NCBI GenBank assembly: GCA_036169915.1
Contig: JAVHOF010000037.1
Coordinates: 1 to 57,337, forward strand
Reading direction: 5' to 3'
DNA: 57,337 nucleotides
Source of the DNA: Candidatus Pacearchaeota archaeon
GTDB lineage: Archaea > Nanobdellota > Nanobdellia > Pacearchaeales > GW2011-AR1
Below, piece by piece: positions 5,642-49,519 of the stretch; the stretch's first letter is position 1; every line of letters starts with the position of its first letter. The notes below the pieces were generated by a model. It had not been told where the DNA came from. It did not search any database and worked only from the letters and a program-made list of their open reading frames with translations. The position numbers and the translations under genes were made by a program.

Positions 5642-7882
5642 TCAATTTTCTTCTTTTACTCTTGTCTCAACAAATTTACCTGCATCTTTAAATAGGATTT
5701 CTTGATTAATTAATTTTCTTAAAATATCTCTTAAATCTGAGATTTTAACTTTGATTTGCTTTGTTGAATCTCTATCTCTTATTGTAACTTCTTTATTTTT
5801 AATACTATCTTCATCAATAGTTATACAATAAGGGGTTCCTATTTCATCATTTCTTGCATATCTCCTTCCAATACTTCCTGTTCTATCATAAAGTATTTTG
5901 AATTCTTTTCTTAAATCTTTGACAATTTTATCTGCAAGACTTTCATATTCTGGCTGTTTTACAATTGGAAAAACAGCTGCTTTTATTGGTGAGAGCTTTG
6001 GATTTAGTTTTAGAATAATATTATTTCTAATGGTATCATGGAAATAGGAATCAAACATGAAAACCAGGAAAGCCCTTTCAACTCCAAGACTTGGTTCGCA
6101 GACAACATGAGGGATAAATGTTTTTCCATTTTCATTTATTTCCATTTTTTCTCCTGAGAACTTTTGATGCTGAGATAAATCAAAATTTCCCCTATTTGCA
6201 AATCCCTGCAATTCTCTCCACCCCATTGGAAATTTATATTCCAAATCCCAGGTATCGATTGCATAGTGGCTTTTTTCATCTGAACAGTGCTGGCGTACAC
6301 GAAATTTCATTGGATTTGCTCCTAGGGAAATGAACCATTGGTATTCCTGAGCAATCCAGTATGCATGCCAGTCTGTTTTTATTATTTTATTCTCCCATGC
6401 ATTATAAATATTCATTAGTTCTGGTTCTTGGTTGTTCTTTTGCATTTCTTCGCTGTAAATCAATATTTCAGCATCTTTTATTTCATTCATGTATGAACAC
6501 GGCATTTCTGGAGAAATAAAATATTCAATTTCCATTTGTTCAAATTCCCTGCTTCTGAACAAGAATTCTCTTGGAGAAATTTCATTTCTGAAAGATTTTC
6601 CCACCTGAGATATTCCAAAAGGAAATTTCATTCTTGAGTTTTCCATAACAAGTTTGAAGTCTGCGAAAATCAACTGAGCTGTTTCAGGTCTTAGATAAGC
6701 TTTGATAGAATCTTCTTTTATTGGGCCTACTTGAGTTACGAACATTGGATTAAATTCTCCTTTATTTTCATATTCTCCTCCACATTTGTCGCATTTAACT
6801 TTTCCAAATTCATGTTTGTCAATTTTAGTCTTGTTTTTGCATTTTTTACAGATAACTGCCAAGTCAACAAAACTTGAAACATGCCCTGAAGCTTCCCATA
6901 CTTTTGGGTTTGTGATTATTGCTCCATCAATTCCAACCATGTCGTCTCTTTGATGAACATGAAATTTCCACCATTCTTTTTTAATATTATTTTTAAATTC
7001 ACTTCCTAAATGCCCAAAGTCCCAAAAACCTCCTAGTCCTCCATAGATTTCTCCGCTTGAATAAACAAAACCTTTTCTTTTGCAAAAATTAGCCAAATCT
7101 TCAATTGTTATGTTTGTGCTTTCTTGTCTCTCTTTTGATTCTTGGATTATTTCTTTTGCTTCTTCTAAATAATAATCCCAACTAGGTTGCCATTTTCCTT
7201 TTTTTCTCCAATCTTCTTTTATAGCTTGTTCCCAAGTTTTTTTATTTAATAAAACTTCGATGGCTAATTGTGGTGCTTTATGAGCAACAATTGCAATATT
7301 TTTTCCATTATACTCTTTGGATAAAAAATTTAGAAAATCTTTTATTCTTTTTTCAACATCTTTTAAACTTTCTCCATTAGGGAATGGATTATTAATATGA
7401 TTTTCATAATTAATTTTTTCCTCTTTAGCTTGATTTAAATTACCATAATCACATTCTCTTAATCTTTTATCTTGAATAATCTTATATTTTCCTTTAAAAC
7501 TTATTTCAGCAGAATCAATAGCTCTCTTTAAATCAGAGCAAAAAACAATATCATATTTTTCATTTTTAATCTGACTAGGGAGCTCTTGAGATTGTTTTAT
7601 TCCTAAATTGGATAATTCACCATCTGCTTGACCAGTAGAAATTCCTTTTTCATTATCTATAGTTGTTCCATGAACAAAATAGGTTATTTTAATTCCTTTT
7701 ATCTCTTCTAAATTTTCTTCGGATTTCATGCTTTTCATTATTTCTTCTGCTTTTTTTTCAGCTTCTTGTTTATTTTTTCCGAGATATGCAATGCACTCGC
7801 TTATTACTTTATCTGCTTTTCTTACACTTTTCTGCAAATAATAATAGTCTTTTCCTGCAACTTTCTTTTTAACAATGAACAT
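5642..7882 (-). CDS. glyS: Glycine--tRNA ligase (archaeal/eukaryotic alpha2 type) fused to an N-terminal histidine-phosphatase (PGM-family) domain
   Basis: The C-terminal 480 aa or so carry GlyRS motifs (GEIYGGLGGFWDFGHLG, LRPETAQ, FRNEISPR, EPSLGVERA, and an anticodon-binding domain). Residues 63-245 or so match the histidine phosphatase fold (FVHGTT.., SDLKRAIDSAE, ECDYGN, VAHKA). Confidence 0.9.
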   Translation of the reverse strand: MFIVKKKVAGKDYYYLQKSVRKADKVISECIAYLGKNKQEAEKKAEEIMKSMKSEENLEEIKGIKITYFVHGTTIDNEKGISTGQADGELSNLGIKQSQELPSQIKNEKYDIVFCSDLKRAIDSAEISFKGKYKIIQDKRLRECDYGNLNQAKEEKINYENHINNPFPNGESLKDVEKRIKDFLNFLSKEYNGKNIAIVAHKAPQLAIEVLLNKKTWEQAIKEDWRKKGKWQPSWDYYLEEAKEIIQESKERQESTNITIEDLANFCKRKGFVYSSGEIYGGLGGFWDFGHLGSEFKNNIKKEWWKFHVHQRDDMVGIDGAIITNPKVWEASGHVSSFVDLAVICKKCKNKTKIDKHEFGKVKCDKCGGEYENKGEFNPMFVTQVGPIKEDSIKAYLRPETAQLIFADFKLVMENSRMKFPFGISQVGKSFRNEISPREFLFRSREFEQMEIEYFISPEMPCSYMNEIKDAEILIYSEEMQKNNQEPELMNIYNAWENKIIKTDWHAYWIAQEYQWFISLGANPMKFRVRQHCSDEKSHYAIDTWDLEYKFPMGWRELQGFANRGNFDLSQHQKFSGEKMEINENGKTFIPHVVCEPSLGVERAFLVFMFDSYFHDTIRNNIILKLNPKLSPIKAAVFPIVKQPEYESLADKIVKDLRKEFKILYDRTGSIGRRYARNDEIGTPYCITIDEDSIKNKEVTIRDRDSTKQIKVKISDLRDILRKLINQEILFKDAGKFVETRVKEEN

Positions 7883-9633: not shown

Positions 9634-12600
9634 TTAACCTCTTGTTCCAATATCTTGGATATATCCTGTTCTTGGTTCATAGATATCTCCTTTTTCTTTT
9701 AGCTTTTCTAGAGCTTCTTCAAACTCACTTTCTGAAAAATCTTTTAATTCTTTTTTAAGGATATCAAGAGGAATTTGTTTGCCGTGTATTTCTTCAAGTT
9801 TTTTCAAGGTTTCTTTGAATAGTATTATTTTGCTTCTCTGGCTTGAGGAAACTCTTGAGGTAAATCTATCTATATCAAATTTTTTAGTTTCAGGATCATA
9901 TCCGACTTGCATTAGATAATAATTTGTTAATCTTATTGCAACTTGAGCATCTTCTTTTTCAGCTGTTGGAGACAATCTTGATTTTGCATGGGCTTCTGCT
10001 AATCTTACTAGTCCTTGAAGCTGTCTTGCTGAAATAGCAATAGAACCTGATTCTCCTGATGTTTGCATATTTCTCAATTTAATATAATAATCTTTAATTT
10101 CTTCAACTGCTTCATCTGTAAGCCTTGGTTCTGTTTTTTGTTTTGCATAAGCAACATATTTTTTAAACAATTCTCTGTCAATTGGTGATTTGACATCTTT
10201 TCTTTGATGCATATTCAAAACATGTGTTGCAATTGCATTATCTTGAAATTTATTTGGCAAGTCTCTAAGAACGAAAATTAAATCAAATCTGTTTAATAAT
10301 GTTGGAGGAAGGTCGATTTGTTGAGTAATTGGCTGTGTTGGTTCAAATCTTCCATATTTTGGATTTCCAGCAGCAAGAACAGATGTTTGAGCGACAAGTG
10401 ATGCCTGTACATTAGCTTTTGAAATTGTTACTGTCTGCTGTTCAAGAGCTTCATGCATTGCACTTCTGTCCTGTTCGTCCATTTTTTCTATTTCATCAAT
10501 GCAGACAACACCTTTGTTAGCAAGAACCATTGCTCCTGCTTCTAATGCCCATCCTTTTAGAAATTCATCTTTAACAACTGTTGCTGTTATTCCAGCACCT
10601 GTTGTTGCTTTTCCAACAATATATCTTCCACGCGGAGCAATATTTGAAATGAATTTTAGGGTCACAGAATTATGAACTCCTATCCCATTTGCAACAAATG
10701 TATTTGTTGAGGGTATGCTTAAATCATATACTTCTTCATTCTTTTTTTCTAGAGTCTTTATATCTTTTATTTTTGACCAAATAATATTGCTATTTGCTAT
10801 TTTTTTCAAAGTTTCTAATTCACTTATTTTTTCTTTTGCTTTGTTATCAAATTCTTTAATTAATCTTAATAATCTTAATCTTCCTATTTCTCCTCTTTTT
10901 TTAACAGTTCTCATTTCTGCTGCTAAAGTTCTGTTTCCATTAATTCTGGAATTATATCCTAATTTTTTTACTATTTCATAAACAAGATTTCCACATGGAA
11001 TTAGATTATTGTAACTATAGATTGGAGAATTTTTATTGAGTTTAATTTCTCTTCCCAAAATTTCAATATTTTTTGTGAAGGTTTCAATCATATAGGTAGG
11101 AACAGAAAGAGAATAATAGCTAGTTTTATTATTTTTATAAAAATATCCTCTTATTTTTATTTTATTTAATATTCCTATTGAGAATAATAAATCAGAACAA
11201 TCTTCTACTAATTCTTTTGAAACACTAATTAGTTCAAATCCTTTTAGCATTTTTTTATTTTTTATTAATCTTCCATCACCTGAAAATAATCCGGAGATTA
11301 TTCCATAAATAAATTCTTTTGGTGAAAAATAGGCAAATCCTGGTATTTTCTTTATTCTTGAATAATTTCCCTTTATTCCTTTTTTTATATTGTTTAAATC
11401 TTTTTTATCATAGCAAAAAGCCATTAAAATATCTGAAAGATTTTTTGAAAATATAGAAACACTTTTATTATTGATATTGTAATTTAAGTTTATTTTTTTT
11501 GAAAAATCAACTACTCTTTTTTGAATTTCTTTATTTTGATTTGATATTTCTATTGTTTTTTCATTTTTTATATAACCTTCGGCTAAAAAAATTCCTATAA
11601 AAAATCCAAAATCTTTTTCAAGTAATATGTTATTTGGTAGAAGCTTTGAACTATTGCTTTGTTTTTTATTAAAATGCCCTGGTATAAATACTTTGAAATT
11701 CTTTTTATGATAGTTTATTGGTATTGGAATGTAGGAACTTTTATTTAATTCTTCTCCTTTTATTGGAATTATATTCCCCTCTTTTGAGAGAGTAATAAAA
11801 GAATGATCTTTTGTTGCTATTATTGATTTTCCATGTTCTGTTGTAAGTTTGATTAAATCTTTTTCAGGAAGATGTTTTATTATTTCATTTACATTTTCCC
11901 ATCTTGGTTTATGGGTTGATTGATCAATTGTTAATACTTTTAAATCTTCTGGATTTTTTCCAAATTTTTTATAAAGAATTTCTATTGTGTCATAGCCTGA
12001 TTCTTTATTTGAAATATACATTATTTTTTCATCTTTTCCAATTGATTTTGCCACACCAGGATCACCTATTAAAAATAAATGAATATCTCCTCTCTGGACT
12101 GTACCATCTGGAGAAGTTTTTCTAACTCCCCCAAACATTTGCAGTACTAATGCTTCTTTAATTTCTTCATAACCCCAAATACTTGGTGCAATGCTATCTC
12201 TTAGTTTATTGAAAAGTTCAGGATCAGTTGAAAGCTCTAGTATTTGTGTTTCATCTTCATCTGTGATTTCCAAATCTTCATAGGTTGATTCTAAAGGTAT
12301 AAGGTTATTTACTTCAATAGCTAAATCAAATCTTGTTGATATTGAACCTGTTGGAAGTGGAACAGGAACTTCTTTTAAAATGCCTATTACTCTTACTTTA
12401 CTTCCAGGAGTTGTTTTTTCTTCCATTAATGGTTCGACTAAGTCTTCTTTTAGAAAAGCATTCATTCTTCTTGGCTGTTCTCCTCCACTTAAATTTTCTT
12501 GAGACTCTTCAATAACTATTCTTTGCGCATCAACCATAGTTTTGCTTATTAATCTAAACTGTCCTTTTCTTCCACAAGAACATCTTGTTGGTTCTCTGAA

Positions 12601-13035
12601 TTTTTTTTCTATCTGCAAAACAGAGATAACTGTTCCGCAAGAAGGGCATTCAAACCTTGCATTTACAACCTGAGGCCTTACTTCTGATGCTTGCCTGACT
12701 AAACCTTCAAAGAAAATTAATTGATTTAGATGAGTTGCCCTTATTGTTCTTATTTTTACTTTTTGTGTTTCAGGCAAATCATTAAATCTTATCCTTGGAT
12801 TTTTTATTATTCCTGTTTCTTCTAAAGCTGTTTCAAGTATCTGCAAAATTTCTTCAGGATTTCCTATCAAAGCTTCTGCTAAAACAGGAGAATTTGAAGC
12901 TAAATCACCAAAATTAACAAAAACAACTTTTTTTCCTCTTCTTACACTTTCTCCTATTTCTTTTTTATAGGTTTCAAAAAAGAGCTTAGCTTCAGAGACA
13001 AGCTCTTCATTATTCTTTTTTTTATCAATCACCAT
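9634..13035 (-). CDS. mcm: MCM replicative helicase, interrupted by an intein in the Walker A P-loop
   Basis: The Zn finger is CPSCG...CSCG. The Walker A motif GDPGVAKS is split from VTLKFISNIAPRG. Also present are Walker B DEIEKMD, the Arg finger NRFDLIF, and a C-terminal winged helix. Confidence 0.95.
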   Translation of the reverse strand: MVIDKKKNNEELVSEAKLFFETYKKEIGESVRRGKKVVFVNFGDLASNSPVLAEALIGNPEEILQILETALEETGIIKNPRIRFNDLPETQKVKIRTIRATHLNQLIFFEGLVRQASEVRPQVVNARFECPSCGTVISVLQIEKKFREPTRCSCGRKGQFRLISKTMVDAQRIVIEESQENLSGGEQPRRMNAFLKEDLVEPLMEEKTTPGSKVRVIGILKEVPVPLPTGSISTRFDLAIEVNNLIPLESTYEDLEITDEDETQILELSTDPELFNKLRDSIAPSIWGYEEIKEALVLQMFGGVRKTSPDGTVQRGDIHLFLIGDPGVAKSIGKDEKIMYISNKESGYDTIEILYKKFGKNPEDLKVLTIDQSTHKPRWENVNEIIKHLPEKDLIKLTTEHGKSIIATKDHSFITLSKEGNIIPIKGEELNKSSYIPIPINYHKKNFKVFIPGHFNKKQSNSSKLLPNNILLEKDFGFFIGIFLAEGYIKNEKTIEISNQNKEIQKRVVDFSKKINLNYNINNKSVSIFSKNLSDILMAFCYDKKDLNNIKKGIKGNYSRIKKIPGFAYFSPKEFIYGIISGLFSGDGRLIKNKKMLKGFELISVSKELVEDCSDLLFSIGILNKIKIRGYFYKNNKTSYYSLSVPTYMIETFTKNIEILGREIKLNKNSPIYSYNNLIPCGNLVYEIVKKLGYNSRINGNRTLAAEMRTVKKRGEIGRLRLLRLIKEFDNKAKEKISELETLKKIANSNIIWSKIKDIKTLEKKNEEVYDLSIPSTNTFVANGIGVHNSVTLKFISNIAPRGRYIVGKATTGAGITATVVKDEFLKGWALEAGAMVLANKGVVCIDEIEKMDEQDRSAMHEALEQQTVTISKANVQASLVAQTSVLAAGNPKYGRFEPTQPITQQIDLPPTLLNRFDLIFVLRDLPNKFQDNAIATHVLNMHQRKDVKSPIDRELFKKYVAYAKQKTEPRLTDEAVEEIKDYYIKLRNMQTSGESGSIAISARQLQGLVRLAEAHAKSRLSPTAEKEDAQVAIRLTNYYLMQVGYDPETKKFDIDRFTSRVSSSQRSKIILFKETLKKLEEIHGKQIPLDILKKELKDFSESEFEEALEKLKEKGDIYEPRTGYIQDIGTRG
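10669..12045 (-). mobile_element. Intein of 459 aa with a LAGLIDADG homing endonuclease, inserted in the MCM P-loop
   Basis: The intein runs from S331 (SIGKDEKIMY, block A-like) to VHN789, followed by a +1 Ser. Block B is TKDH. The two LAGLIDADG motifs are GFFIGIFLAEGYI and IYGIISGLFSGDGRL. Joining the exteins restores GDPGVAKS-VTLKF. Confidence 0.85.
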
Positions 13036-14016: not shown

Positions 14017-14574
14017 TTATTCCTTTTTTCTTGCGTTAGCTTCTTTGATTTTTTTAATCAGCTGGCTCATTGAGTCTTCTAATTGCTGATTATTCTTTGT
14101 TCCCGTACATACAAGTTTTCCATTTGAGAATAACAAAAAAGTTGCATTTGGCTCTATTAATTTGTAGACCAAGCCTGGGAACTGTTCTGGTTCGTATTCT
14201 GTATTTTCTAATTCAAGTGCAAGATAATTAAGATTAAGCATCATGTTTATATTTCCTGATGCTACAATGTTCTGCACTGTTATTTTTGGCTTGTCTGTTA
14301 TTTTAACATTTATTTTTTTAAGTGTTTTTATAACCTGTTCAATAACCAATCTTACCTGAGCAATTGATTTTGTTCCTGTGCATACTAAATTTCCAGATGA
14401 AAAAACAAGAACTGCGGATTTTGGCTGTTTGATTCTTAAAACCAATCCTGGAAACTGCTCTGGATTGTATTCTGTATTAGGAATTGTTTTTGCAAGTTTT
14501 GTAAGAGGAACATCTTTTCCAAGAGAAGTAGTAGCAACAATATTCTGTATTTTTAATGAATTCTTATCAGCCAT
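14017..14574 (-). CDS. tbp: TATA-box-binding protein
   Basis: The duplicated TBP repeat is present: IQNIVATTSL...YNPEQFPGLVLRI..VLVFSSGNLVCTGTKS and VQNIVASGNI...YEPEQFPGLVYKL...LLFSNGKLVCTGTK. Confidence 0.95.
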   Translation of the reverse strand: MADKNSLKIQNIVATTSLGKDVPLTKLAKTIPNTEYNPEQFPGLVLRIKQPKSAVLVFSSGNLVCTGTKSIAQVRLVIEQVIKTLKKINVKITDKPKITVQNIVASGNINMMLNLNYLALELENTEYEPEQFPGLVYKLIEPNATFLLFSNGKLVCTGTKNNQQLEDSMSQLIKKIKEANARKKE

Positions 14575-29572: not shown

Positions 29573-30499
29573 TTATGAAATAAATCTAAATTCTTCCAAA
29601 ATATCCAATACAGTATAAATATTTTCTTTGACTAAATCACATATTTCAATTTCTCTTTTTGACATCTTTGATTTATTTATCTTTTCATATATTTTTTTTA
29701 TGAATTCTCTGATTTCATCTATTTTTTTTACAAACGAACCATCAAACTCTTTATATAGATTTGAATGAAATAATTTAAGTATTTCAAAAGATTCTTTCAA
29801 AAATCTGATTGTTATTGCATTAAAAGTGAATGTTTTTTTATCTGAACCAATTTCTGTAATCTCTTCAGCTACCATCTTACACCTATCTCCTATAAGTTCT
29901 AATTGCATAGCTAAAAAATATAATAGCTCTTTTTTCATTTTTTTATTAACTACATTTTTGTTTATCAATCTGATTATATAGTCTATAAATTTATTTATTT
30001 GCTTGTCAGTTAGAATTATTTCTTTCAGCCTTTCAGATTCCAAAGGCTTGGTATCATCTTGAAGCTCTTCGCACATTGACATCATCAATATGATAACCCT
30101 TTTTATCAGCTTATCAATATCTTCAGTTTGTGATTTTGCAATATCTTCAATAATGCATTCGTTTTTTGATTGTTCTACTATTTCAAATCCAATCAAATCC
30201 TTTATTGTTTCTTCAATTATATTTAATTGATTAATATTCTTGAATTTTAAGGCTAATCTGTCATAGCCTTTTCTGTATAATGCACGCAGATGGCGGTATA
30301 ATGTTGATGGAGAATAGTCATTTATATCCAAACTTAAACTTTTATAATCTTGTTTTATTGGCTCTCCTATTATTAATCTATTTTCTTCTTCAGTCACATC
30401 TATCTCATCGCCTTTCTTTATTCCCTGTTGCTTTACCCATTTTGAAGGAAGACTGATTACAAGAGTCTGGTTTGCCAACTGAATTGCTTTTCTTTTCAT
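29573..30499 (-). CDS. AbrB-domain / PhoU-like regulator (archaeal phosphate-uptake-regulator type)
   Basis: The N-terminus LANQTLVISLPSKWVKQQGIKKGDEIDV is an AbrB/SpoVT domain. The remainder consists of two helical PhoU-like repeats. Confidence 0.6.
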   Translation of the reverse strand: MKRKAIQLANQTLVISLPSKWVKQQGIKKGDEIDVTEEENRLIIGEPIKQDYKSLSLDINDYSPSTLYRHLRALYRKGYDRLALKFKNINQLNIIEETIKDLIGFEIVEQSKNECIIEDIAKSQTEDIDKLIKRVIILMMSMCEELQDDTKPLESERLKEIILTDKQINKFIDYIIRLINKNVVNKKMKKELLYFLAMQLELIGDRCKMVAEEITEIGSDKKTFTFNAITIRFLKESFEILKLFHSNLYKEFDGSFVKKIDEIREFIKKIYEKINKSKMSKREIEICDLVKENIYTVLDILEEFRFIS

Positions 30500-32592: not shown

Positions 32593-32666
32593 AAAAGACA
32601 TTAAAAAGGATATGAAAAATGAAAATTCAAAATTTAATTGAGTGTAAGGAGGTAAATAAAAAACAA

Positions 32667-34760
32667 ATGAAAAATAAAAATTTATTTTTAATTTTGGGAA
32701 TTGTTTTAGTTTTAATTTTGTCTGGATTTGTAAGTGCGCTTGCAATAGGTGACAAGGTGGAAGTGTATAATACTGGAAACAGTGGATTGCTTGTTCTTAG
32801 CCCTAATGCTTGCAGTTCTTCAATTGGAGTTAAATTTAATGGAGCAAGGGGGACTATTACAGCTGGTCCTATTTATTGCAGCTCTTATAATCGCTGGAAA
32901 GTTACATGGGATGGAGGTCCTACTGGATGGAGTGCTGAAAATTGGTTGAGAAAAGTTGTTACTTGCACCAATCAATGTTCATCTGGACAAATAAGATGCA
33001 ATGGATATTACAAACAAAGCTGTATTTCCAGCAATGGATGTTGGATATGGGGTGGAGATACTTATTGCAGTAATGGATGTGCTTATGGACAATGCCTTGG
33101 TGGTTGCACTCCAAAAACATGTTCTCAACTTGGAAAACAATGTGGAGCATGGGATAATGGTTGTCAGCAATCAATAGATTGTGGAACTTGTTCTTCTGGT
33201 AAAACTTGTTCAAATGGACAATGTGTAAGTGGAGGAAGTTTGCCTACTTCTATAATCTCGCCTGTTGATGGTAATCTTGAGATTGTCAATACTTTAGGCG
33301 CTTGTTCAAATACAAAATGGTGTTTTAATCAACATAAAACAGGAGGGCATGTGCCAGGTGGAGGAATATGTAAGGCAGATGATACTTATGCTTGGGATGC
33401 TAATCTTAATTTTCCTAGTCAAGATTCTGATAAAGGTAAACCTGTTTATTCAGTTGCTTCTGGAGTTGTCACAAGTCTCTATGGAGGATGTACAAATGCC
33501 GGAGGGTCTTATGGGCAAGTATTAATTGAACATAATTATAATGGAAATAAATGGTGGAGTGGATATTTACATATGGGAAATATTCAAGTGAAAACTGGAC
33601 AGAGTGTAAACGAAAATACAATTTTAGGGTATGTGTCAAATACAGGAGTATCTGATGGTAATAATCATTTACATTTTGTAGTCTATAAAGGTTCTAACAC
33701 TAATGGAGGGTTAGTATCATTTAATTTAAACATAAATCCTAGAAATAATGGTTGTACTCCTCAATGTTCTGGAAAACAATGTGGAAGTGATGGATGTGGT
33801 GGAAGTTGTGGCAGTTGTTCTAATGGAAAAACATGCAATTCAAATGGACAATGCGTTACTTCATGTACTCCAAAAACATGTTCTCAACTTGGAAAACAAT
33901 GTGGGGGATGGGATGATGGATGTCAAAAATCAATAAATTGTGGCAGTTGCTCTAATGGAAAAACATGCAATTCAAATGGACAGTGTGTAAGTGGTTGTAC
34001 AAATCAATGTACTTATAAAACCAATAGATGCAATGGACAAAATTCAGAATATTGTACAGATTATAATGGTGATGGATGTTCTGAATGGATTGTACAAAGA
34101 GTTTGTGATTATGGGTGTAACAATAATAATGGTTTTTGTTATATGTGTACTCCTAATTCAAAATATTGTTATGGAAATTGGATTATGAAATGTAGTTCTG
34201 ATGGTTCTAGCGCGAGTGGAGATACTTATTGTAGCAAGGGATGTAATAATGGGGCTTGTATTAATAGTTGTACTCCAAATTGGAATTGTGGAGCTTGGTC
34301 AACATGTTCGAATAATCAACAAACAAGAACATGTACAGACTCTAATAATTGTGGAACAAATAATGGGAAACCTGCTACTTCGCAAAGTTGCAGTGCTTCT
34401 GGAAATAACCATAATTCAGATTGTACATTTATAACAAACATTCAACCAGCAGGATCAACATGGGTAATAGAAGATTATCTGAATTCTCCGGATGGAAAGA
34501 AATGGTTAGCAATGGATATAACTGGTGATGGAATTAAAGAAATATTTGGTTATATGAGTGGTTCAAGTACTGATTCATGCCCACCAGATAATATTTATTG
34601 GCACACATCACCAATTTCTGCATTAGGAGGTTTTATGCTAAAATATTATTATTCTTCAAACAATATTGAAAAGCAATTATTTGTTTGTGATAATAATAGA
34701 TTTGCAGCATACTCTTCGACCCGTAATATACCAACAAACCCTGACATTAGTTGCCCATAA
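32667..34760 (+). CDS. Secreted Cys-rich multidomain protein with an M23 (LytM-type) peptidase-like domain
   Basis: GGAGG lies about 13 nt upstream of the ATG at 32667. A signal peptide is followed by an SH3b-like N-terminal domain. The M23-like core is [11 protein letters not shown]...YGQVLIEH...WWSGYLHM...[17 protein letters not shown]. Repeated Cys-rich modules ([35 protein letters not shown]) are also present. Confidence 0.8.
33105..33992 (+). repeat. Repeated Cys-rich module coding units inside the M23-like gene
   Basis: Near-identical DNA (..ACTCCAAAAACATGTTCTCAACTTGGAAAACAATGTGG..) starts at 33105 and at 33864. A shorter related module lies at about 33753-33863. Confidence 0.8.
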
Positions 34761-35826: not shown

Positions 35827-35850
35827 AAACTAATCTTTTTAAGAAAGATT

Positions 35851-36453
35851 ATGAAACTGAAACTTGGAGAATGTTTAAGAAAACCTAATGATGATTATTA
35901 CAATTATGCTCTTAGGAATGCAAGAATTGAGGCAAGGTATAGTGAAGAACAATTAGCTGTGGAACTTGGAGTTTGCAGAACTATGATTTCACATTATGAA
36001 AGATTAAGAACTCTTCCAGCTCCTGCAATTGTTAAGAAATTGTCAAAGGTTTTGCATAGAAAGGTAAGAGAACTTTTTCCAAAAGAAATGAGAGCATATG
36101 CAAGAGCAGGACGAGTTAAACAAAATAATGGTAAAGAAGATGCACTAGATTATGCACAACCTCTACCGAAAAATATTGAATCATTAGAAGATGCTGGACA
36201 AGAATATTCTGATATTTATTCTATGCTGGATATACATGATAATATTAAAAAGGTACTTAAGGGATTAAGTTATAGACAAAGAGAAGTGATTAAGTTAAGA
36301 TATGGTTTAGGTGATGGATATTCTTATACTTTGGAAGAAGTTGGATATATATTTAATGTATCAATGGAGAGAATAAGACAGATAGAAGCCAAAGCAGTGA
36401 AAAAATTGCAAATGCCAGAAGTAGCTGCCAATTTAGTAGGATTTTTAGATTAA
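35851..36453 (+). CDS. XRE-type HTH fused to a bacterial sigma-70 region 4 domain
   Basis: The N-terminus YSEEQLAVELGVCRTMISHYERL is an XRE HTH. The C-terminus LSYRQREVIKLRYGLGDGYSYTLEEVGYIFNVSMERIRQIEAKAVKKLQ...LVGFLD aligns almost position for position with RpoD region 4.2 as I recall it (L..RE..VL..RFG......TLEEVG..F.VTRERIRQIEAKALRKL....L..FLD). Confidence 0.8.
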   Translation: MKLKLGECLRKPNDDYYNYALRNARIEARYSEEQLAVELGVCRTMISHYERLRTLPAPAIVKKLSKVLHRKVRELFPKEMRAYARAGRVKQNNGKEDALDYAQPLPKNIESLEDAGQEYSDIYSMLDIHDNIKKVLKGLSYRQREVIKLRYGLGDGYSYTLEEVGYIFNVSMERIRQIEAKAVKKLQMPEVAANLVGFLD

Positions 36454-36944: not shown

Positions 36945-38243
36945 ATGAAAAAACCTTTTATTAAGCCAGAACCAGGAGATAAAGTTGAAGTGCTTATAAA
37001 TAATAAAAGAGAAACAGGAATTCTTTTGGAGTCGCATGATTCTGGAATTCTTTTATTGAAACTGGATAATGGTTATAATCTTGGACTGAAAAAAGAAGAT
37101 ATTTCTGAAATAAAAGTCATTGAAAAAGGTAGGATAGAGGAAAAAACTGAAGCTAAATTTGAAATATCTCATAAAAAACCTATTATTGATTTTATTGTTG
37201 TTGGAGGAACTATAACAAACAAACTTGACCCTAAAACCGGAGGAGTGACTAATTTGATTAATCCTCAGGAATTATTTTTAGTTTATCCTGAGGTTTTTCA
37301 GTTTGCAGATATAAGAATTCATAATCCTTTTATGAAAGCAAGCGAGAGCATGAATTTTCTTGATTGGATTAAAATAGCCAAGATTGTTGAAAAAAGTTTG
37401 AATAATGAAAATGTTAAAGGGGTTATTATTACTCATGGAACTGATTTTTTGCATTACACAGCAGCTGCATTAAGTTTTATGCTTCCTAATTTAAACAAGC
37501 CTGTTGTGCTGACTTATTCTCAAAGGTCAAGTGATAGAGGTAGTGCAGATTCAAGATTAAATCTTATCTGTTCTGCGCATGCAGCTCTTAGTGATATTGC
37601 AGAAGTAATGATTGTTGGACATGCAACAATAAATGATAATTATTGCTATGCTCTTTCTGGAACAAAAACAAGAAAAATGCATACTTCAAGAAGAGATACT
37701 TTTCGTGCTATTAATACAAAGCCTATTGCAAAAATTTTTCCAGATGGAAAAATTGAATCTATTAAAGAGTATAATAAAAGAAAATCTGGAAATTTTAAAA
37801 TAAAAACTGATGCGGTTTTTGAACCTAAGGTTGCTTTAGTAAAATTTTATCCAGGGCAAGATCCTAATATTTTAGATTATTATAAGAAAAAAGGATATAA
37901 GGGGATTGTGATTGAAATGTGCGGGTTAGGACATGTGTGCACTGAAGGAAAATTCAATTGGTTACCTAAATTAAAACAAATAATAAGCTCTGGAATTTTT
38001 GTTTGCGCTGCTCCACAGACATTATACGGAAGATTAGACCCTTATGTTTATGCTCCTCAGAGAAAGATTTTGGAAACAGGAGTTGTTTTTTTAGAAGATA
38101 TCTTGCCAGAAACAGCATTTGTAAAACTTGGATTTGTTTTAGGACATAAGATATGGAGAGGAAGTGTTGCTACTCGTGTAAAAATGCTTGAAAATATTTC
38201 AGGAGAATTTAATAAAAGATTAGGCAATGAGTTTTTGGATTAA
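36945..38243 (+). CDS. gatD: Glu-tRNA(Gln) amidotransferase subunit D
   Basis: An N-terminal small beta domain (GDKVEV...) is followed by an asparaginase fold (GGTI, ITHGTDFLHYTAAALSF, and a C-terminal domain). Confidence 0.9.
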   Translation: MKKPFIKPEPGDKVEVLINNKRETGILLESHDSGILLLKLDNGYNLGLKKEDISEIKVIEKGRIEEKTEAKFEISHKKPIIDFIVVGGTITNKLDPKTGGVTNLINPQELFLVYPEVFQFADIRIHNPFMKASESMNFLDWIKIAKIVEKSLNNENVKGVIITHGTDFLHYTAAALSFMLPNLNKPVVLTYSQRSSDRGSADSRLNLICSAHAALSDIAEVMIVGHATINDNYCYALSGTKTRKMHTSRRDTFRAINTKPIAKIFPDGKIESIKEYNKRKSGNFKIKTDAVFEPKVALVKFYPGQDPNILDYYKKKGYKGIVIEMCGLGHVCTEGKFNWLPKLKQIISSGIFVCAAPQTLYGRLDPYVYAPQRKILETGVVFLEDILPETAFVKLGFVLGHKIWRGSVATRVKMLENISGEFNKRLGNEFLD

Positions 38244-40033: not shown

Positions 40034-40813
40034 ATGAAACGTGAAATATATAATTTAGGAGATGAGGAATTTGCTTTTTTTATAAATAGAATTGCAGAAG
40101 AACTTAGATATAGAGATATTCCTTATGCTTTTGTAGGCGGTGTTGCTGTTCAATCTCAGATTTTAAAAAGGCTTACTAAAAAATATAATGCAGATATATC
40201 TCATCTTATATTAAATAGTGATGTAAGATTTCAAGATTATGTAAGAGCTACTGATGATGTAGACCTTGCTTTGAAGTTTCCAACAGATGAAAAAGGTAAT
40301 GTTAGTCCTGAAAATCTTGAAAAAATCATAGATGTCTGTGAGCATATAGAAGGCGTTTATTTGTCAGGAGATCATAAACATCTTTTTGAATATCTATTGC
40401 AAAGAAATGGAATAAGAAGACCTGTTTTTAGTGTTTCTATTGATGACAATCAACAGGAAAATTTATTTCTGAATATATCTAGAGAATCTAGAAATTTAAG
40501 AAGGATAAGCTATCAATTTTATGAAGAATTCATAGATGCTGGAGAAGATTTAACAATTCCTTATAGCTCTTCTTTTAGTTTACGAATTAAAACTTATAGG
40601 CCTGAACATATTTTAGCTACAAAAATATCTCAATTAAGAGCAAAAGATATGATGGATATAAAAAATCTTGTTGAAATTATGCAGCAATGTGGAGAGGAAG
40701 TAGATGCTAAGGAACTTGAAAGGATTTTAATACCTTGTCATTTAATAAATTATGAAAGATTTGGGTCTCTAACAGGAATATCTGTTGATGTTGATTTAAA
40801 TGGACATTCTTAA
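40034..40813 (+). CDS. Nucleotidyltransferase-fold protein (AbiEii-like)
   Basis: The sequence is YAFVGGVAVQSQ....VRATDDVDLAL, which fits the GG...R.T.D.D pattern. Confidence 0.4.
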   Translation: MKREIYNLGDEEFAFFINRIAEELRYRDIPYAFVGGVAVQSQILKRLTKKYNADISHLILNSDVRFQDYVRATDDVDLALKFPTDEKGNVSPENLEKIIDVCEHIEGVYLSGDHKHLFEYLLQRNGIRRPVFSVSIDDNQQENLFLNISRESRNLRRISYQFYEEFIDAGEDLTIPYSSSFSLRIKTYRPEHILATKISQLRAKDMMDIKNLVEIMQQCGEEVDAKELERILIPCHLINYERFGSLTGISVDVDLNGHS

Positions 40814-40853: not shown

Positions 40854-42296
40854 ATGGAAATAAAAAAGGAAATTAAATGCGGGCTTGAGATTCATCAGCA
40901 GCTTGATACACATAAACTGTTCTGTGAATGTCCGAGCATTTTGAGAAATGATGCTTCGAGTTTTAAAGTAAAAAGAAAGCTTCATGCTGTTGCAGGTGAG
41001 AGCGGGGAAGTGGATATTGCTGCAAAATATGAAGCTTCTAAGGACAGGGAATTTGTTTATTATGGTTATGATACTACTTGTTTAATTGAGCTTGATGAAG
41101 AACCACCTCATTTAATTAATTCAGAAGCATTGAAAATTGCACTGCATATTGCGCTTCATCTTAATTGCGAAATTTCTTCTATTTCTCAGATAATGAGAAA
41201 AACAGTTGTTGATGGTTCAAATACATCTGGTTTTCAAAGAACAGTCTTGATTGCAAGAAATGGTTTTGTTGAAACCAAATTTGGCAGGGTTGGAATAAGA
41301 ACTCTTTTATTAGAGGAAGATGCTGCAAGGCCTGCGTCTGGAAATGAAGAGGGAAATGAAAACATTAAGGTGTATAAATTAGACAGGCTTGGAATTCCAT
41401 TAGTTGAAATTGCAACAGAACCTGATATTAAAAGTGCTGAACAAGCTAAAGAAGTTGCATTACTTATTGGAGATGTTTTAAGAAGCTGCAAAGTCAGGAG
41501 AGGAATCGGTACGATAAGACAGGATGTAAATATCAGCATTTCAGGGCATCCAAGAATTGAAATAAAAGGTTTTCAGGATGTTAAAATGTTTATTTCTGTT
41601 ATTGAAAATGAAATTAAAAGACAAGAAGAAAATCTCAGATTAAAAAAAGATTTGAAAAGTGAGGTTAGAAACTCAAGTGCTGATGGAACAACTAAATTTT
41701 TAAGACCCATGCCCGGAAGTTCAAGAATGTATCCTGAAACTGACTTGCCTTTGCTTAGAATCTCAAGAGAAATCATCAATGATGCAAAAGCAACATTGCC
41801 TAAATTAAGAAGTGAAATCAAATCAGAATTAAAAGAAAAAGGACTTTCTGAAGAAATGATTAAATTATTGTCTCATGGAGATAAGATAGAAGAGTTTGAA
41901 TCTTTATTAAAAATAATAAATGAACCTAATTTTATTGCAAAAGTTCTTTTTATTTTTCCAAAGGAAATTGCAAGTCATGAGAAAATTGAAAATATTGATG
42001 ATATTCTTAATCTTGATGTGATTGAGTCAATAATCAATGCTGTTGAAAGGAAAAAAATTCAGAGAGAAGATGTGAAGCATGTCATGGAAGAGATTGCCCT
42101 CGGAAAAAAATTTGAAGATGCGATTAAGCTTGAGAAATTTGATTTATCTGATATTGAATCTGAAATTGCAAAAATTGTTAAAGAAAAACCTGACTTGTCA
42201 ATTGGCGGATATATGGGATTAATTATGCAGAAATTTAAGGGCAAGGTAAATGGTAAAGATGCCACTGAAATACTTGGGAAATTGATAAAACTTTAA
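40854..42296 (+). CDS. gatE: Glu-tRNA(Gln) amidotransferase subunit E (short form)
   Basis: Motifs include CGLEIHQQLDTHKLFCECPS, LEEDAAR, IEIKGFQD and RMYPETDLP. At 480 aa it is shorter than the GatE lengths of about 600+ aa that I recall. Confidence 0.85.
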   Translation: MEIKKEIKCGLEIHQQLDTHKLFCECPSILRNDASSFKVKRKLHAVAGESGEVDIAAKYEASKDREFVYYGYDTTCLIELDEEPPHLINSEALKIALHIALHLNCEISSISQIMRKTVVDGSNTSGFQRTVLIARNGFVETKFGRVGIRTLLLEEDAARPASGNEEGNENIKVYKLDRLGIPLVEIATEPDIKSAEQAKEVALLIGDVLRSCKVRRGIGTIRQDVNISISGHPRIEIKGFQDVKMFISVIENEIKRQEENLRLKKDLKSEVRNSSADGTTKFLRPMPGSSRMYPETDLPLLRISREIINDAKATLPKLRSEIKSELKEKGLSEEMIKLLSHGDKIEEFESLLKIINEPNFIAKVLFIFPKEIASHEKIENIDDILNLDVIESIINAVERKKIQREDVKHVMEEIALGKKFEDAIKLEKFDLSDIESEIAKIVKEKPDLSIGGYMGLIMQKFKGKVNGKDATEILGKLIKL

Positions 42297-47937: not shown

Positions 47938-48185
47938 AGGATATGATAAAATTAAGAAAAGAAATAAATAAAATAGATAGAGAAACAATTAGATTATTAA
48001 GAAAAAGATTTGAAATAAGCAGAAAGATTGGAGATTATAAAAAGAAAAATAATCTTAAGATAAGAGATTTAGAAAGGGAGAACAAAATAATAGGGGGAAA
48101 AATAAAAGAATCTAAATTAAATAAAATATTTGTTAAAAATTTATATAATCTTATTTTTAGAGAATCAAGGAGAATACAAAAATGA
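47934..48185 (+). CDS. AroQ-type chorismate mutase-like protein
   Basis: LRKEINKIDRETIRLLRKRFEISRKIGDYKK......D.ERE matches the CM type 2 helix pattern. The gene is 83 aa long. Confidence 0.6.
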   Translation: MKDMIKLRKEINKIDRETIRLLRKRFEISRKIGDYKKKNNLKIRDLERENKIIGGKIKESKLNKIFVKNLYNLIFRESRRIQK

Positions 48186-49519
48186 TAAAAGAAAAATTAA
48201 AATTGATAAAAGAAGGAAAATTAAGTGCAGAGCAGAATATTAGAAATCTTATTGAGAAAATAAAGAAAGAAAATTCTGAAATTAATGCTGTTTTGCATAT
48301 AAATGAAAATGCTGTTAATCAGGCTAGAGAGATTGATAAAAAAATTAAAAATAATAAATCTGGAAAATTAGCAGGATTGGGTTTTGTTGTTAAAAGCAAT
48401 ATAAATGTTTTAGGATTAATATGCAATTGCGCTTCTCGCACTTTGGAAAATTATAAATCTACTTATAATGCAAGTGTTATTGAGAAACTTTTGAAGGAAG
48501 ATGCAATTGTTCTTGGAATGGCTAATATGGATGAGTTTGCAGCAGGAGGTAGTGGTGAAAATAGCGTATTTGGAATAACTAAAAATCCTCGTGCACCTGA
48601 TAGAATTCCTGGAGGCAGCTCAAGTGGAAGTGCTGCAAGTGTTGCAGCTGGATTTTGTGATTTTGCTCTTGGAAGCGATACAGGGGGAAGCATAAGAAAT
48701 CCTGCTTCACATTGCGGAATTGTTGGAATGAAACCGAGTTATGGAGCTGTTTCAAGATATGGATTAATAGACTTATCAATGAGCTTGGATCAAATAGGTC
48801 TATTGACAAATAGTGTTGATGACTGCAAAATTATTTTTGATATAATAAAAGGAAAAGATGAAAGAGATTCTGTTACTAGAGATTTTTCTATTGAAAAAAA
48901 AGATATTAAGAAAATTTTTATTGGAATTCCTAAAATAAGGGCAAATAAGGAAATTTGGGATTTAGTGTTAGAAAGAGTTGATGAGATTTGCAAGAAGAAT
49001 AATTGGAAAAAAGAGAATTGTGAGATAAAACATATTGATTTGGGAATACAAACTTATTATCCTATTAATTATGTTGAATTTTTTTCAGGTACAAGAAAAT
49101 TCGATGGAAGAAAATATGGATTTAAAATTGAAGATGTTTGCGGAGAAGAAGTTTTAAGAAGAATTTTAGGTGGACAGGAGATATCTAAGGCAGAATTTGC
49201 AGGAAAATATTACAGAAGAGCGTTAAAAGCTAAAAGGATAATTGAAAAAGAATTTGAAAATTCTTTTAAGAAATTTGATGTTTTGATAATGCCTACTGTT
49301 CCTAGAACCCCTCATAAATTTAAAGAAAAAATAAGTGTTGAAGACATGTATAATTATGATACTCTGACTGTTTTAGCAAATCTTGCCGAAATTCCTGGAA
49401 TTTCAGTTCCTTGCGGAACAATTAAAGAACAAGGAAATGAAATTCCTATTGGTATGCAGATTCTTGCTTCTAAAGGGGATGATGATTTTTTGCTTGATGT
49501 TGCGAAGATTTTCAATTAG
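48182..49519 (+). CDS. gatA: Glutamyl-tRNA(Gln)/Asp-tRNA(Asn) amidotransferase subunit A
   Basis: The amidase signature GGSSSGSAASVAAGFCDFALGSDTGGSIRNPA is present. Confidence 0.9.
   Translation: MIKEKLKLIKEGKLSAEQNIRNLIEKIKKENSEINAVLHINENAVNQAREIDKKIKNNKSGKLAGLGFVVKSNINVLGLICNCASRTLENYKSTYNASVIEKLLKEDAIVLGMANMDEFAAGGSGENSVFGITKNPRAPDRIPGGSSSGSAASVAAGFCDFALGSDTGGSIRNPASHCGIVGMKPSYGAVSRYGLIDLSMSLDQIGLLTNSVDDCKIIFDIIKGKDERDSVTRDFSIEKKDIKKIFIGIPKIRANKEIWDLVLERVDEICKKNNWKKENCEIKHIDLGIQTYYPINYVEFFSGTRKFDGRKYGFKIEDVCGEEVLRRILGGQEISKAEFAGKYYRRALKAKRIIEKEFENSFKKFDVLIMPTVPRTPHKFKEKISVEDMYNYDTLTVLANLAEIPGISVPCGTIKEQGNEIPIGMQILASKGDDDFLLDVAKIFN

Follow-up and report, generated by a model that had tools for sequence, protein, structure and literature searches.

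A two-domain protein joining an XRE-type helix-turn-helix to region 4 of a bacterial primary sigma factor in a Pacearchaeota genome

The DNA analysed here (hereinafter the window) is a stretch of 57,337 nucleotides, contig JAVHOF010000037.1 of Candidatus Pacearchaeota archaeon. At 35851..36453 it contains a gene for a protein in which an XRE-family helix-turn-helix (HTH) domain is followed by a linker and by region 4 of a bacterial primary sigma factor (hereinafter sigma4). The gene, its product and homologs with the same layout are designated XRE-sigma4. The gene is organized as follows.

35851..36453, + strand: XRE-sigma4 fusion gene, a complete open reading frame of 200 residues with an ATG start, including the stop codon
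35887..35928, + strand: N-terminal signature motif of the archaeal subfamily, residues 13-26, NDDYYNYALRNARI, which precedes and enters helix 1
35911..36075, + strand: XRE-family HTH domain, residues 21-75, Pfam HTH_3 match
36064..36129, + strand: conserved ELFPxxLRxYxRxxR segment and long helix, residues 72-93, following the XRE domain; a hallmark of the family
36130..36198, + strand: variable linker, residues 94-116, predicted to be disordered from low model confidence and variation within the family
36199..36450, + strand: sigma-derived module, residues 117-200, running from the tail of the 3.2 linker through regions 4.1 and 4.2 up to the C-terminus
36364..36408, + strand: region 4.2 recognition helix, residues 172-186, MERIRQIEAKAVKKL, equivalent to E. 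coli sigma70 residues 584-598

Domain architecture and origin of the sigma-derived module

Two Pfam domains are recognized in the protein. HTH_3 (PF01381) matches residues 21-75 over the whole profile (positions 1-55 of 55) with 36.9 bits and E = 3.7e-9, and Sigma70_r4 (PF04545) matches residues 135-187 (positions 1-49 of 50) with 58.7 bits and E = 4.1e-16; the respective cut-offs are 23 and 24.1 bits. No Pfam match to Sigma70_r2 or Sigma70_r3 was found in the 200-residue protein even at E ≤ 1, none to GerE (PF00196) or LuxR was found at E ≤ 1, and the match to Sigma70_r4_2 reaches E = 0.11 at best. The original prediction, made from the letters of the DNA and their translations, had described an N-terminal XRE-family HTH and a C-terminal sigma region 4 without regions 1-3, and had named a generic LuxR/GerE HTH as the assignment that would speak against it. 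The profile searches agree with this description at each point, and the homology to sigma factors is confined to the last 84 sigma residues.

An AlphaFold2 model was built with an alignment of 26 family members. The model has a mean predicted local distance difference test (pLDDT) score of 80 and contains two confident helical domains (residues 19-93 and 120-195) with a disordered linker between them. The XRE domain adopts a five-helix fold (residues 19-27, 32-39, 43-50, 58-68, and 72-75, with pLDDT ≥ 90), and a further helix at residues 78-93 lies within the ELFP segment. The pLDDT of the linker is 46–59 across residues 91-120 and falls below 50 at residues 110-118. In the 26-member alignment, linker length and sequence differ widely, D14 and R25 of the signature motif are invariant, N18 and R22 are nearly invariant, F76 of the ELFP segment is invariant, and P77 is nearly so. 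The ELFP helix may have a role in packing or dimerisation.

The possibility that the N-terminal domain is a diverged sigma region 3 was also considered, because long alignments were obtained by Foldseek (to full SigA chains) and by tblastn (to rpoD). The tblastn extensions are score-neutral, and hhalign gives a probability of 1.8% for this domain against full-length sigma; the idea was rejected.

The sigma-derived module corresponds to a primary sigma factor. Specifically, hhalign of the family against full-length sigma aligns residues 117-200 with the final 84 columns of primary sigma (probability 99.94%, E = 2.6e-36), and residues 125-200 align to positions 555-630 of the 631-position RpoD model of NCBIfam. 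All strong sequence matches in the PDB are group-1 sigma factors (E from 5e-18 to 4e-11), with RpoS at about 2e-7 at best. The modelled sigma4 domain superposes on solved SigA region 4 at 1.0–2.0 Å in Foldseek. Protein residue n corresponds to sigma70 residue n+412, a numbering based on an E. coli 533-613 sequence that is 100% identical to 1TLH and 4JK1. TLEEVG, the recognition helix ERIRQIEAKA, and the terminal FLD are all present and match E. coli sigma70 residues 546-612, consistent with the almost residue-for-residue likeness to RpoD that had been noticed at the outset. The window protein keeps sigma70 E585, R586, R588, Q589, K593, K597, L607, F610, and L611, while R584, which contacts the −35 element, is replaced by methionine.

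The closest matches to the module were sought in 5.8 billion proteins and in GTDB genomes. They are primary sigma factors of Planctomycetota (Pirellulales and related), with 74–79% identity and 102–107 bits, which bears out the bacterial origin proposed for the sigma piece; no solved sigma factor from other phyla exceeds 69 bits. A scan of GTDB contigs with search patterns that lay in region 4 was likewise dominated by Planctomycetota rpoD. The Planctomycetota RpoD consensus hardly differs from that of the window's subclade. Members of this subclade are 78–93% identical to the Planctomycetota consensus over 67 residues, compared with 52–58% to E. coli, although the proteins overall are only 45–50% identical; the wider family averages 48%. 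A relative (P0418, on contig L099 of 60% GC) has the same HTH-ELFP-sigma4 layout, and its region 4 DNA is 76–81% nucleotide-identical to the 3' ends of Planctomycetota rpoD genes. In the window gene, with a GC content of 28%, nucleotide similarity to Planctomycetota rpoD is still detectable in region 4. From these sequence affinities we infer that the sigma4 module of the archaeal branch derived from a Planctomycetota-type rpoD.

Archaeal residence and the wider family

The window carries a set of archaeal markers, namely an intein-containing MCM with an archaeal winged helix, an ATP-dependent DNA ligase, L15e, GatD, GatE, and TBP. The closest named relatives of GatD are Nanoarchaeota, Nanoarchaeia, and Pacearchaeota archaea (71–79% identity), which indicates that the organism is a DPANN archaeon. 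The genome is thus archaeal, as originally stated, with TBP encoded in the same window. Two genes are needed for what follows:

14017-14574, − strand: TBP, 193 bits
35515..35826, + strand: pterin-4a-carbinolamine dehydratase (NCBIfam PRK00823, 84 bits), ending 24 nucleotides before the XRE-sigma4 ATG

That a bacterial fragment was stitched into an archaeal contig by assembly or binning has a single point in its favour, the bacterial affinity of the sigma4 segment. However, the exact protein recurs on 15 contigs, each assembled independently and from different sequencing runs, always in the order pterin dehydratase, XRE-sigma4 gene, opposite-strand zf-like gene, and GatD, and these identical junctions exclude chimerism. 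The GC content of the window is uniform (26–34%), the likeness to bacteria is limited to the final 84 codons, the N-terminal half being specific to the family, and divergent homologs are embedded in archaeal core-gene clusters elsewhere. An artefact of this kind, which had been named as a finding that would speak against the original prediction, is so improbable that we set it aside.

A word-indexed search returned few full-length relatives. A profile of the N-terminal half retrieved 26 clusters at E ≤ 1e-18, 24 of which also have Sigma70_r4; the next match, a generic XRE protein, follows at 3e-7. An exhaustive HMMER search with the 26-member profile yielded 301 representatives of 50%-identity clusters at E ≤ 1e-30, and about 125 of the best 150 representatives are 150–330 residues long and match the whole two-domain profile in a single stretch. 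By these searches, XRE-sigma4 is an uncharacterised family that, when clustered at 50% identity, has at least about 125 clusters. A metagenome scan with the N-terminal alignment added four short contigs only.

Two subfamilies can be distinguished. Subfamily 1, which is archaeal and includes the window protein, is characterized by a DxYxNY..R.AR lead-in, YERLR..P, and ELFPE.LREY. Subfamily 2 has EFRFG.....YN...R..RL.LGLTQ, YE.FR.YP, and LFPEWL, sometimes preceded by an excisionase-like N-terminal extension, and carries a more generic RpoD-type region 4. The LFP motif is present in 117 of 126 full-length representatives. A DxYxNY-like motif was found in 75 of the 126 on a first regular-expression pass, and a looser motif rule places 83 representatives in the archaeal subfamily. 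The window protein contains all the elements: DxYxNY..R.AR lead-in, XRE HTH, LFPE helix, linker, and sigma4 ending in ..FLD. The ratio of GARP to FYMINK amino acids is unimodal across members and did not separate archaeal from bacterial proteins. The genomic context of subfamily 1 is archaeal in all six informative cases:

Window protein: archaeal markers of the 57-kb window
P0007: between aEF1-alpha and aEF2, S7, S12, NusA, and Rpb1 genes
P0126: adjoins aIF5B, S6e, and histone genes
P0131: near an intein-containing SMC gene, a DnaG-type Toprim gene, and aEF1-alpha
P0303: near aCPSF1, proteasome, and TYW2 genes
P0337: near diphthamide synthase, intein-containing aIF5B, S6e, and eIF2-gamma genes

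P0126 and P0337 share local synteny, both lying beside aIF5B and CTP synthase, which indicates that inheritance is partly vertical; synteny is otherwise unconserved in subfamily 1. The two relatives with the most similar GatD (77–79% identity) lack an XRE-sigma4 gene at the corresponding position, whereas a closer ortholog, on contig L203, keeps the gene with identical upstream synteny. The gene is thus accessory.

Subfamily 2 is associated with phages and mobile elements. One member lies on a mobile element with DUF5131, DNA methylases, an IstB-like gene, HTH_17, and ParA, and others lie on about 15 IMG/VR viral contigs of 33–70% GC. One of these contigs is a temperate phage, with the XRE-sigma4 gene between the early genes and the HNH/terminase module. 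No close member of the archaeal subfamily was found on IMG/VR viral contigs, and neither the 50,697 GenBank phages nor the PLSDB plasmids yielded a full-length relative. Membership of a known phage protein family was considered and rejected, since no PHROG has the combined architecture and BFVD contains no convincing two-domain match.

Several further features were observed among family members and their neighbours. HicAB toxin-antitoxin genes lie near P0131. A gene for a DUF7557 (PF24434) protein of 69–71 residues lies on the same strand directly upstream of P0131 (L092 6795-7004) and of P0318 (L096 4079-4294), two unrelated family members, and may be a partner gene of XRE-sigma4; it is absent upstream of the gene in the window. 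The called start of P0303 (L097, about 9880-10000) is probably too far downstream, because in-frame upstream DNA encodes the lead-in DDYCNYFLRDARI, which gives P0303 a full subfamily 1 N-terminus. On an archaeal contig, 4 kb downstream of P0337, a 661-residue protein (L098 14549-16534) has a faint Sigma70_r4 match, and this genome may encode a second protein with sigma4. On the temperate phage contig, a 73-residue protein ending in SHERIRQIIRRINRK (L100 4575-4796) adjoins the integrase and looks like a stand-alone region-4.2-like HTH. Proteins of up to 1,900–3,500 residues (P0281, P0282, P0284, P0286, P0300, and others) match the family profile in 6–15 separate stretches, apparently as tandem arrays of XRE modules, sigma4 modules, or both. 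The sigma factors P0343, P0383, and P0413 contain a duplicated region 3–region 4 segment, a duplication that may be an assembly artefact.

Selection, contact residues and neighbouring genes

The XRE-sigma4 gene is under purifying selection. Compared with the L203 ortholog, the ratio of nonsynonymous to synonymous substitution rates (dN/dS) is 0.33 for the whole gene, with values of 0.38 for the N-terminal portion and 0.29 for the sigma-derived portion. The two XRE-sigma4 proteins are 73–81% identical, compared with about 94% for the pterin dehydratase and 96% for the intergenic DNA, which shows that the regulator changes markedly faster than the DNA around it.

Residues that contact DNA in sigma70 are for the most part retained. 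Among the 83 subfamily 1 representatives, R588 is kept in 57, Q589 in 62, E585 in 54, R586 in 63, R554 in 58, and R562 in 64. Variation is greatest at R584, with arginine in 39 and lysine in a further 15. In the C-terminal tail, L607 is kept in 57 of the 83 and F610 in 49. One clade of the archaeal subfamily (P0124, P0127-P0129, and P0137-P0139) has both a degenerate recognition helix and a degenerate tail.

The order of pterin dehydratase and XRE-sigma4 gene is also kept on L203, and the two genes are probably co-transcribed. Elsewhere in the window, the following genes were observed:

5642-7882, − strand: class II aminoacyl-tRNA synthetase (tRNA-synt_2b core and HGTP anticodon-binding domain) with an N-terminal His_Phos_1 domain, an unusual fusion
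9634-13035, − strand: MCM gene split by an intein that contains a LAGLIDADG homing-endonuclease domain; inteins are also present at related loci, in SMC on L092 and in aIF5B on L098
27613-29025 (−), 36945-38243 (+), 40854-42296 (+), and 48182-49519 (+): archaeal GatD and GatE together with a GatB-type subunit and a GatA-like amidase, so that both tRNA transamidation systems appear to be present
29573-30499, − strand: 307-residue protein with an N-terminal MazE/AbrB-type (SpoVT-AbrB) DNA-binding domain, another bacterial-type regulator module
32619-34760, + strand: 713-residue protein with Peptidase_M23 (peptidoglycan endopeptidase type), 1.1 kb upstream of the XRE-sigma4 gene, a bacterial-type cell-wall hydrolase in a DPANN archaeon
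40034-40813, + strand: AbiEii-like nucleotidyltransferase (toxin of a type IV toxin-antitoxin system), 23.6 bits against a cut-off of 22.5, between gatD and gatE; no PADLOC match was found for this gene

Comparison with known systems and competing explanations

The sigma-derived module has the same fold and recognition helix as bacterial group-1 sigma4 (E. coli sigma70 530-613; Planctomycetota RpoD) and is 74–79% identical to the Planctomycetota-type consensus. In contrast to group-1 sigma4, it is separated from sigma1.1–sigma3 and joined instead to an unrelated XRE domain, and it resides in an archaeon that presumably has no bacterial RNA polymerase (RNAP). With XRE/Cro-C1 regulators, the protein shares the full HTH_3 profile, the five-helix fold, small size, accessory status, and phage relatives. 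It differs from them in the DxYxNY...R.AR lead-in, in the LFPE helix, and in having sigma4 as its C-terminal partner instead of a peptidase, oligomerisation, or sensor domain.

Sigma-like genes in DPANN archaea are already known. Castelle et al. 2021 (PMC8204110) described genes classified as sigma-70 (fam00359) in DPANN archaea, prevalent in Woesearchaeota, ruled out errors of binning, detected no anti-sigma factors, and described the mechanism of control as unclear. The paper text gives no domain architecture for fam00359, and fam00359 was not found in two supplementary files of the paper. The two groups share the same kind of organisms and the same automatic sigma-70 annotation, which suggests that the window family may belong to fam00359. 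The window family differs from fam00359 as described in being an XRE-sigma4 fusion without sigma2 and sigma3, in having relatives on phages, and in its Planctomycetota-like donor. In a survey of LuxR solos from archaea, generic InterPro signatures of sigma-70 region 4, or of regions 3/4, were reported on Tfx and Bat-type (HTH_10) proteins (PMC5413776). Tfx, Bat-type HTH_10 proteins, and LuxR solos are likewise archaeal DNA-binding HTH proteins with sigma region 4 signatures; theirs is a remote likeness at the superfamily level, whereas the window module is 74–79% identical to RpoD of a living lineage. Nothing relevant to the combination of HTH_3 and Sigma70_r4 was found in the literature. The XRE-sigma4 architecture, the 84-residue limit of homology, the size of the family, its phage and mobile-element branch, and the Planctomycetota-type donor appear to be new.

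The top match in both NCBIfam and PADLOC is MzaA (NF041931, PDLC02203), a sigma-70-like component of the anti-phage system MZA; the likeness comes from the region 4 that both proteins have. The match covers 76 of 683 profile positions in PADLOC and about 124 of 726 in the NCBIfam model, and scores 86.9 against a cut-off of 800. A role as an MZA defence component was rejected, because the match is partial and at the level of region 4 only, and none of nine neighbouring proteins matches any PADLOC model.

The explanation that we favour, with a probability of roughly 0.6, is that XRE-sigma4 is a horizontally acquired, sequence-specific DNA-binding transcription regulator with two HTH domains, and not a sigma factor. 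The protein would be cytoplasmic, with a flexible tether between the XRE-type HTH and the sigma4 HTH. Its presumed targets are bipartite operators in the vicinity of archaeal promoters, where the sigma4 HTH would still use the canonical residues that read the −35 element. The fusion probably arose in the bacterial or phage world, and the archaeal branch most probably received the already fused gene by horizontal transfer. In the archaeon it would act as an accessory, fast-evolving, and selectively maintained regulator. The original prediction had proposed domain capture from bacteria and reuse as a two-HTH transcription factor. The bacterial origin of the sigma piece stands, but capture and reuse within this archaeon is too narrow a view, because, given the large full-length family and its phage and mobile-element branch, a fusion that formed inside archaea is no more likely than the uptake of a gene that was already fused.

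Several points weigh against a regulator of this kind. DNA binding itself, the target sites, regulatory function, oligomeric state, and the vehicle and direction of transfer (from phage or bacterium to archaeon) are deductions from sequence and context, and the taxonomic range of the archaeal subfamily is based on six contexts only. The conservation of the whole sigma4 surface in the window subclade, close to that of RpoD, exceeds what simple DNA binding would need and leaves room for a conserved protein partner. One of the −35-contacting residues, R584, is methionine in the window protein. A TTGACA-like target, suggested at the outset, finds no support, as the window contains 35 occurrences of TTGACA, no more than the 40.2 ± 6.2 expected, and the motif is not consistently present upstream of eight family genes. 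A 21-bp perfect palindrome overlaps the start codon (35831-35851) and was considered as an operator. It is unique in the window, however, and its changes in the ortholog are non-compensatory despite the 96% identity of the intergenic DNA, and this candidate was rejected. Sequence searches thus point to no DNA target for the XRE-sigma4 protein.

Other explanations were also considered. Several members are named 'RNA polymerase sigma factor (sigma-70 family)' by JGI, and DPANN sigma-70 family genes have been discussed as possible sigma factors (Castelle et al. 2021, PMC8204110), both of which would fit a minimal but bona fide sigma factor that directs RNAP to promoters. The NCBIfam sigma models, however, score far under their full-length cut-offs: the best reach 83.5–86.9 bits against cut-offs of 555–800 (RpoD, 83.5 against 555). 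The exception is the superfamily model TIGR02937 (sigma70-ECF), with 51.3 bits against 42.9, which is a partial match to positions 85-162 of 165. Sigma2 (regions 2.1-2.4) binds the beta' coiled-coil and recognises the −10 element. The XRE-sigma4 protein has neither sigma2, and with it core binding and −10 recognition, nor sigma3, TBP is present in the genome context, and an Rpb1-type RNAP subunit is encoded at the locus of a relative (P0007). The lack of sigma2 and sigma3 in a genome that uses TBP and an archaeal-type RNAP argues that the protein is not a sigma factor, and on sequence grounds we regard such a function as refuted. The protein could instead be a regulator left behind by a mobile element or virus, for example one of immunity or late genes, which acts on element-derived genes only or has no current host role. 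Relatives on phage or mobile-element DNA, absence from the syntenic site in near relatives, evolution faster than that of the housekeeping neighbour (73–81% against about 94% identity), and toxin-antitoxin-type genes near some members (HicAB at P0131 and the AbiEii-like gene in the window) all fit this possibility. Yet the gene is a single-gene insertion between housekeeping genes, with no integrase or element genes among the annotated flanking genes, and no close archaeal-subfamily member was found on the IMG/VR viral contigs. In addition, the synteny of P0126 and P0337 indicates vertical inheritance, and a dN/dS of 0.33 indicates that selection maintains the gene. A leftover regulator is therefore rather unlikely.

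Sigma4 might also work mainly by protein contacts, either by docking on archaeal RNAP or TFB, which an XRE-bound activator would thereby recruit in a sigma-like manner, or by acting on the RNAP beta-flap or −35 elements of a bacterial (Planctomycetota-like) partner. The whole of sigma4 is 78–93% identical to the Planctomycetota RpoD consensus over 67 residues, against 45–50% protein-wide, and the C-terminal ...L..FLD tail, which we take to be part of the flap-binding surface of sigma, is kept in many members (L607 in 57 and F610 in 49 of 83). Region 4 of the two subfamilies resembles different bacterial RpoD lineages, which fits a 'host tracking' mimic in the phage branch; repeated capture of region 4 there is possible. 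However, no equivalent of the beta-flap-tip helix is recognised in archaeal RNAP, and the existence of a whole clade in which both the recognition helix and the tail are degenerate speaks against a partner that constrains all members. As for action across domains, no signal-peptide-like or anchor-like hydrophobic stretch was seen by eye in the N-terminus (no predictor was run), no secretion-associated gene was recognised among the annotated neighbours, and no evidence links these archaea to bacterial hosts. The suggestion that the protein interferes with the RNAP of a bacterial partner thus gains no support. A role mainly through protein contacts seems improbable overall. Slightly more speculative still is the idea that sigma4 is kept nearly unchanged because it engages a conserved partner, with the protein serving as an XRE-bound tether of archaeal transcription machinery, or being delivered to a Planctomycetota-like bacterial partner of these DPANN cells or acting on its DNA or RNAP, and with the phage branch as a sigma4 mimic that tracks the RpoD of its host. 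If sigma4 did have a protein partner, the significance of the finding would be much greater.

With XRE-sigma4 as a DNA-binding regulator, an annotation trap is corrected: among the 'sigma-70 family sigma factors' of DPANN archaea, at least this family consists of XRE regulators with the last 84 sigma residues. The analysis defines a large uncharacterised two-HTH family in archaeal chromosomes and in phage and mobile-element DNA. It provides a clean case of a core bacterial transcription module reused across domains, in which the likely donor (a Planctomycetota-type rpoD) and the likely vehicles (phage and mobile-element relatives) are both traceable. Because the DNA specificity of one module is predictable from decades of work on sigma70, the family may serve as a testable system for how bacterial-type regulators plug into the archaeal TBP/TFB machinery.

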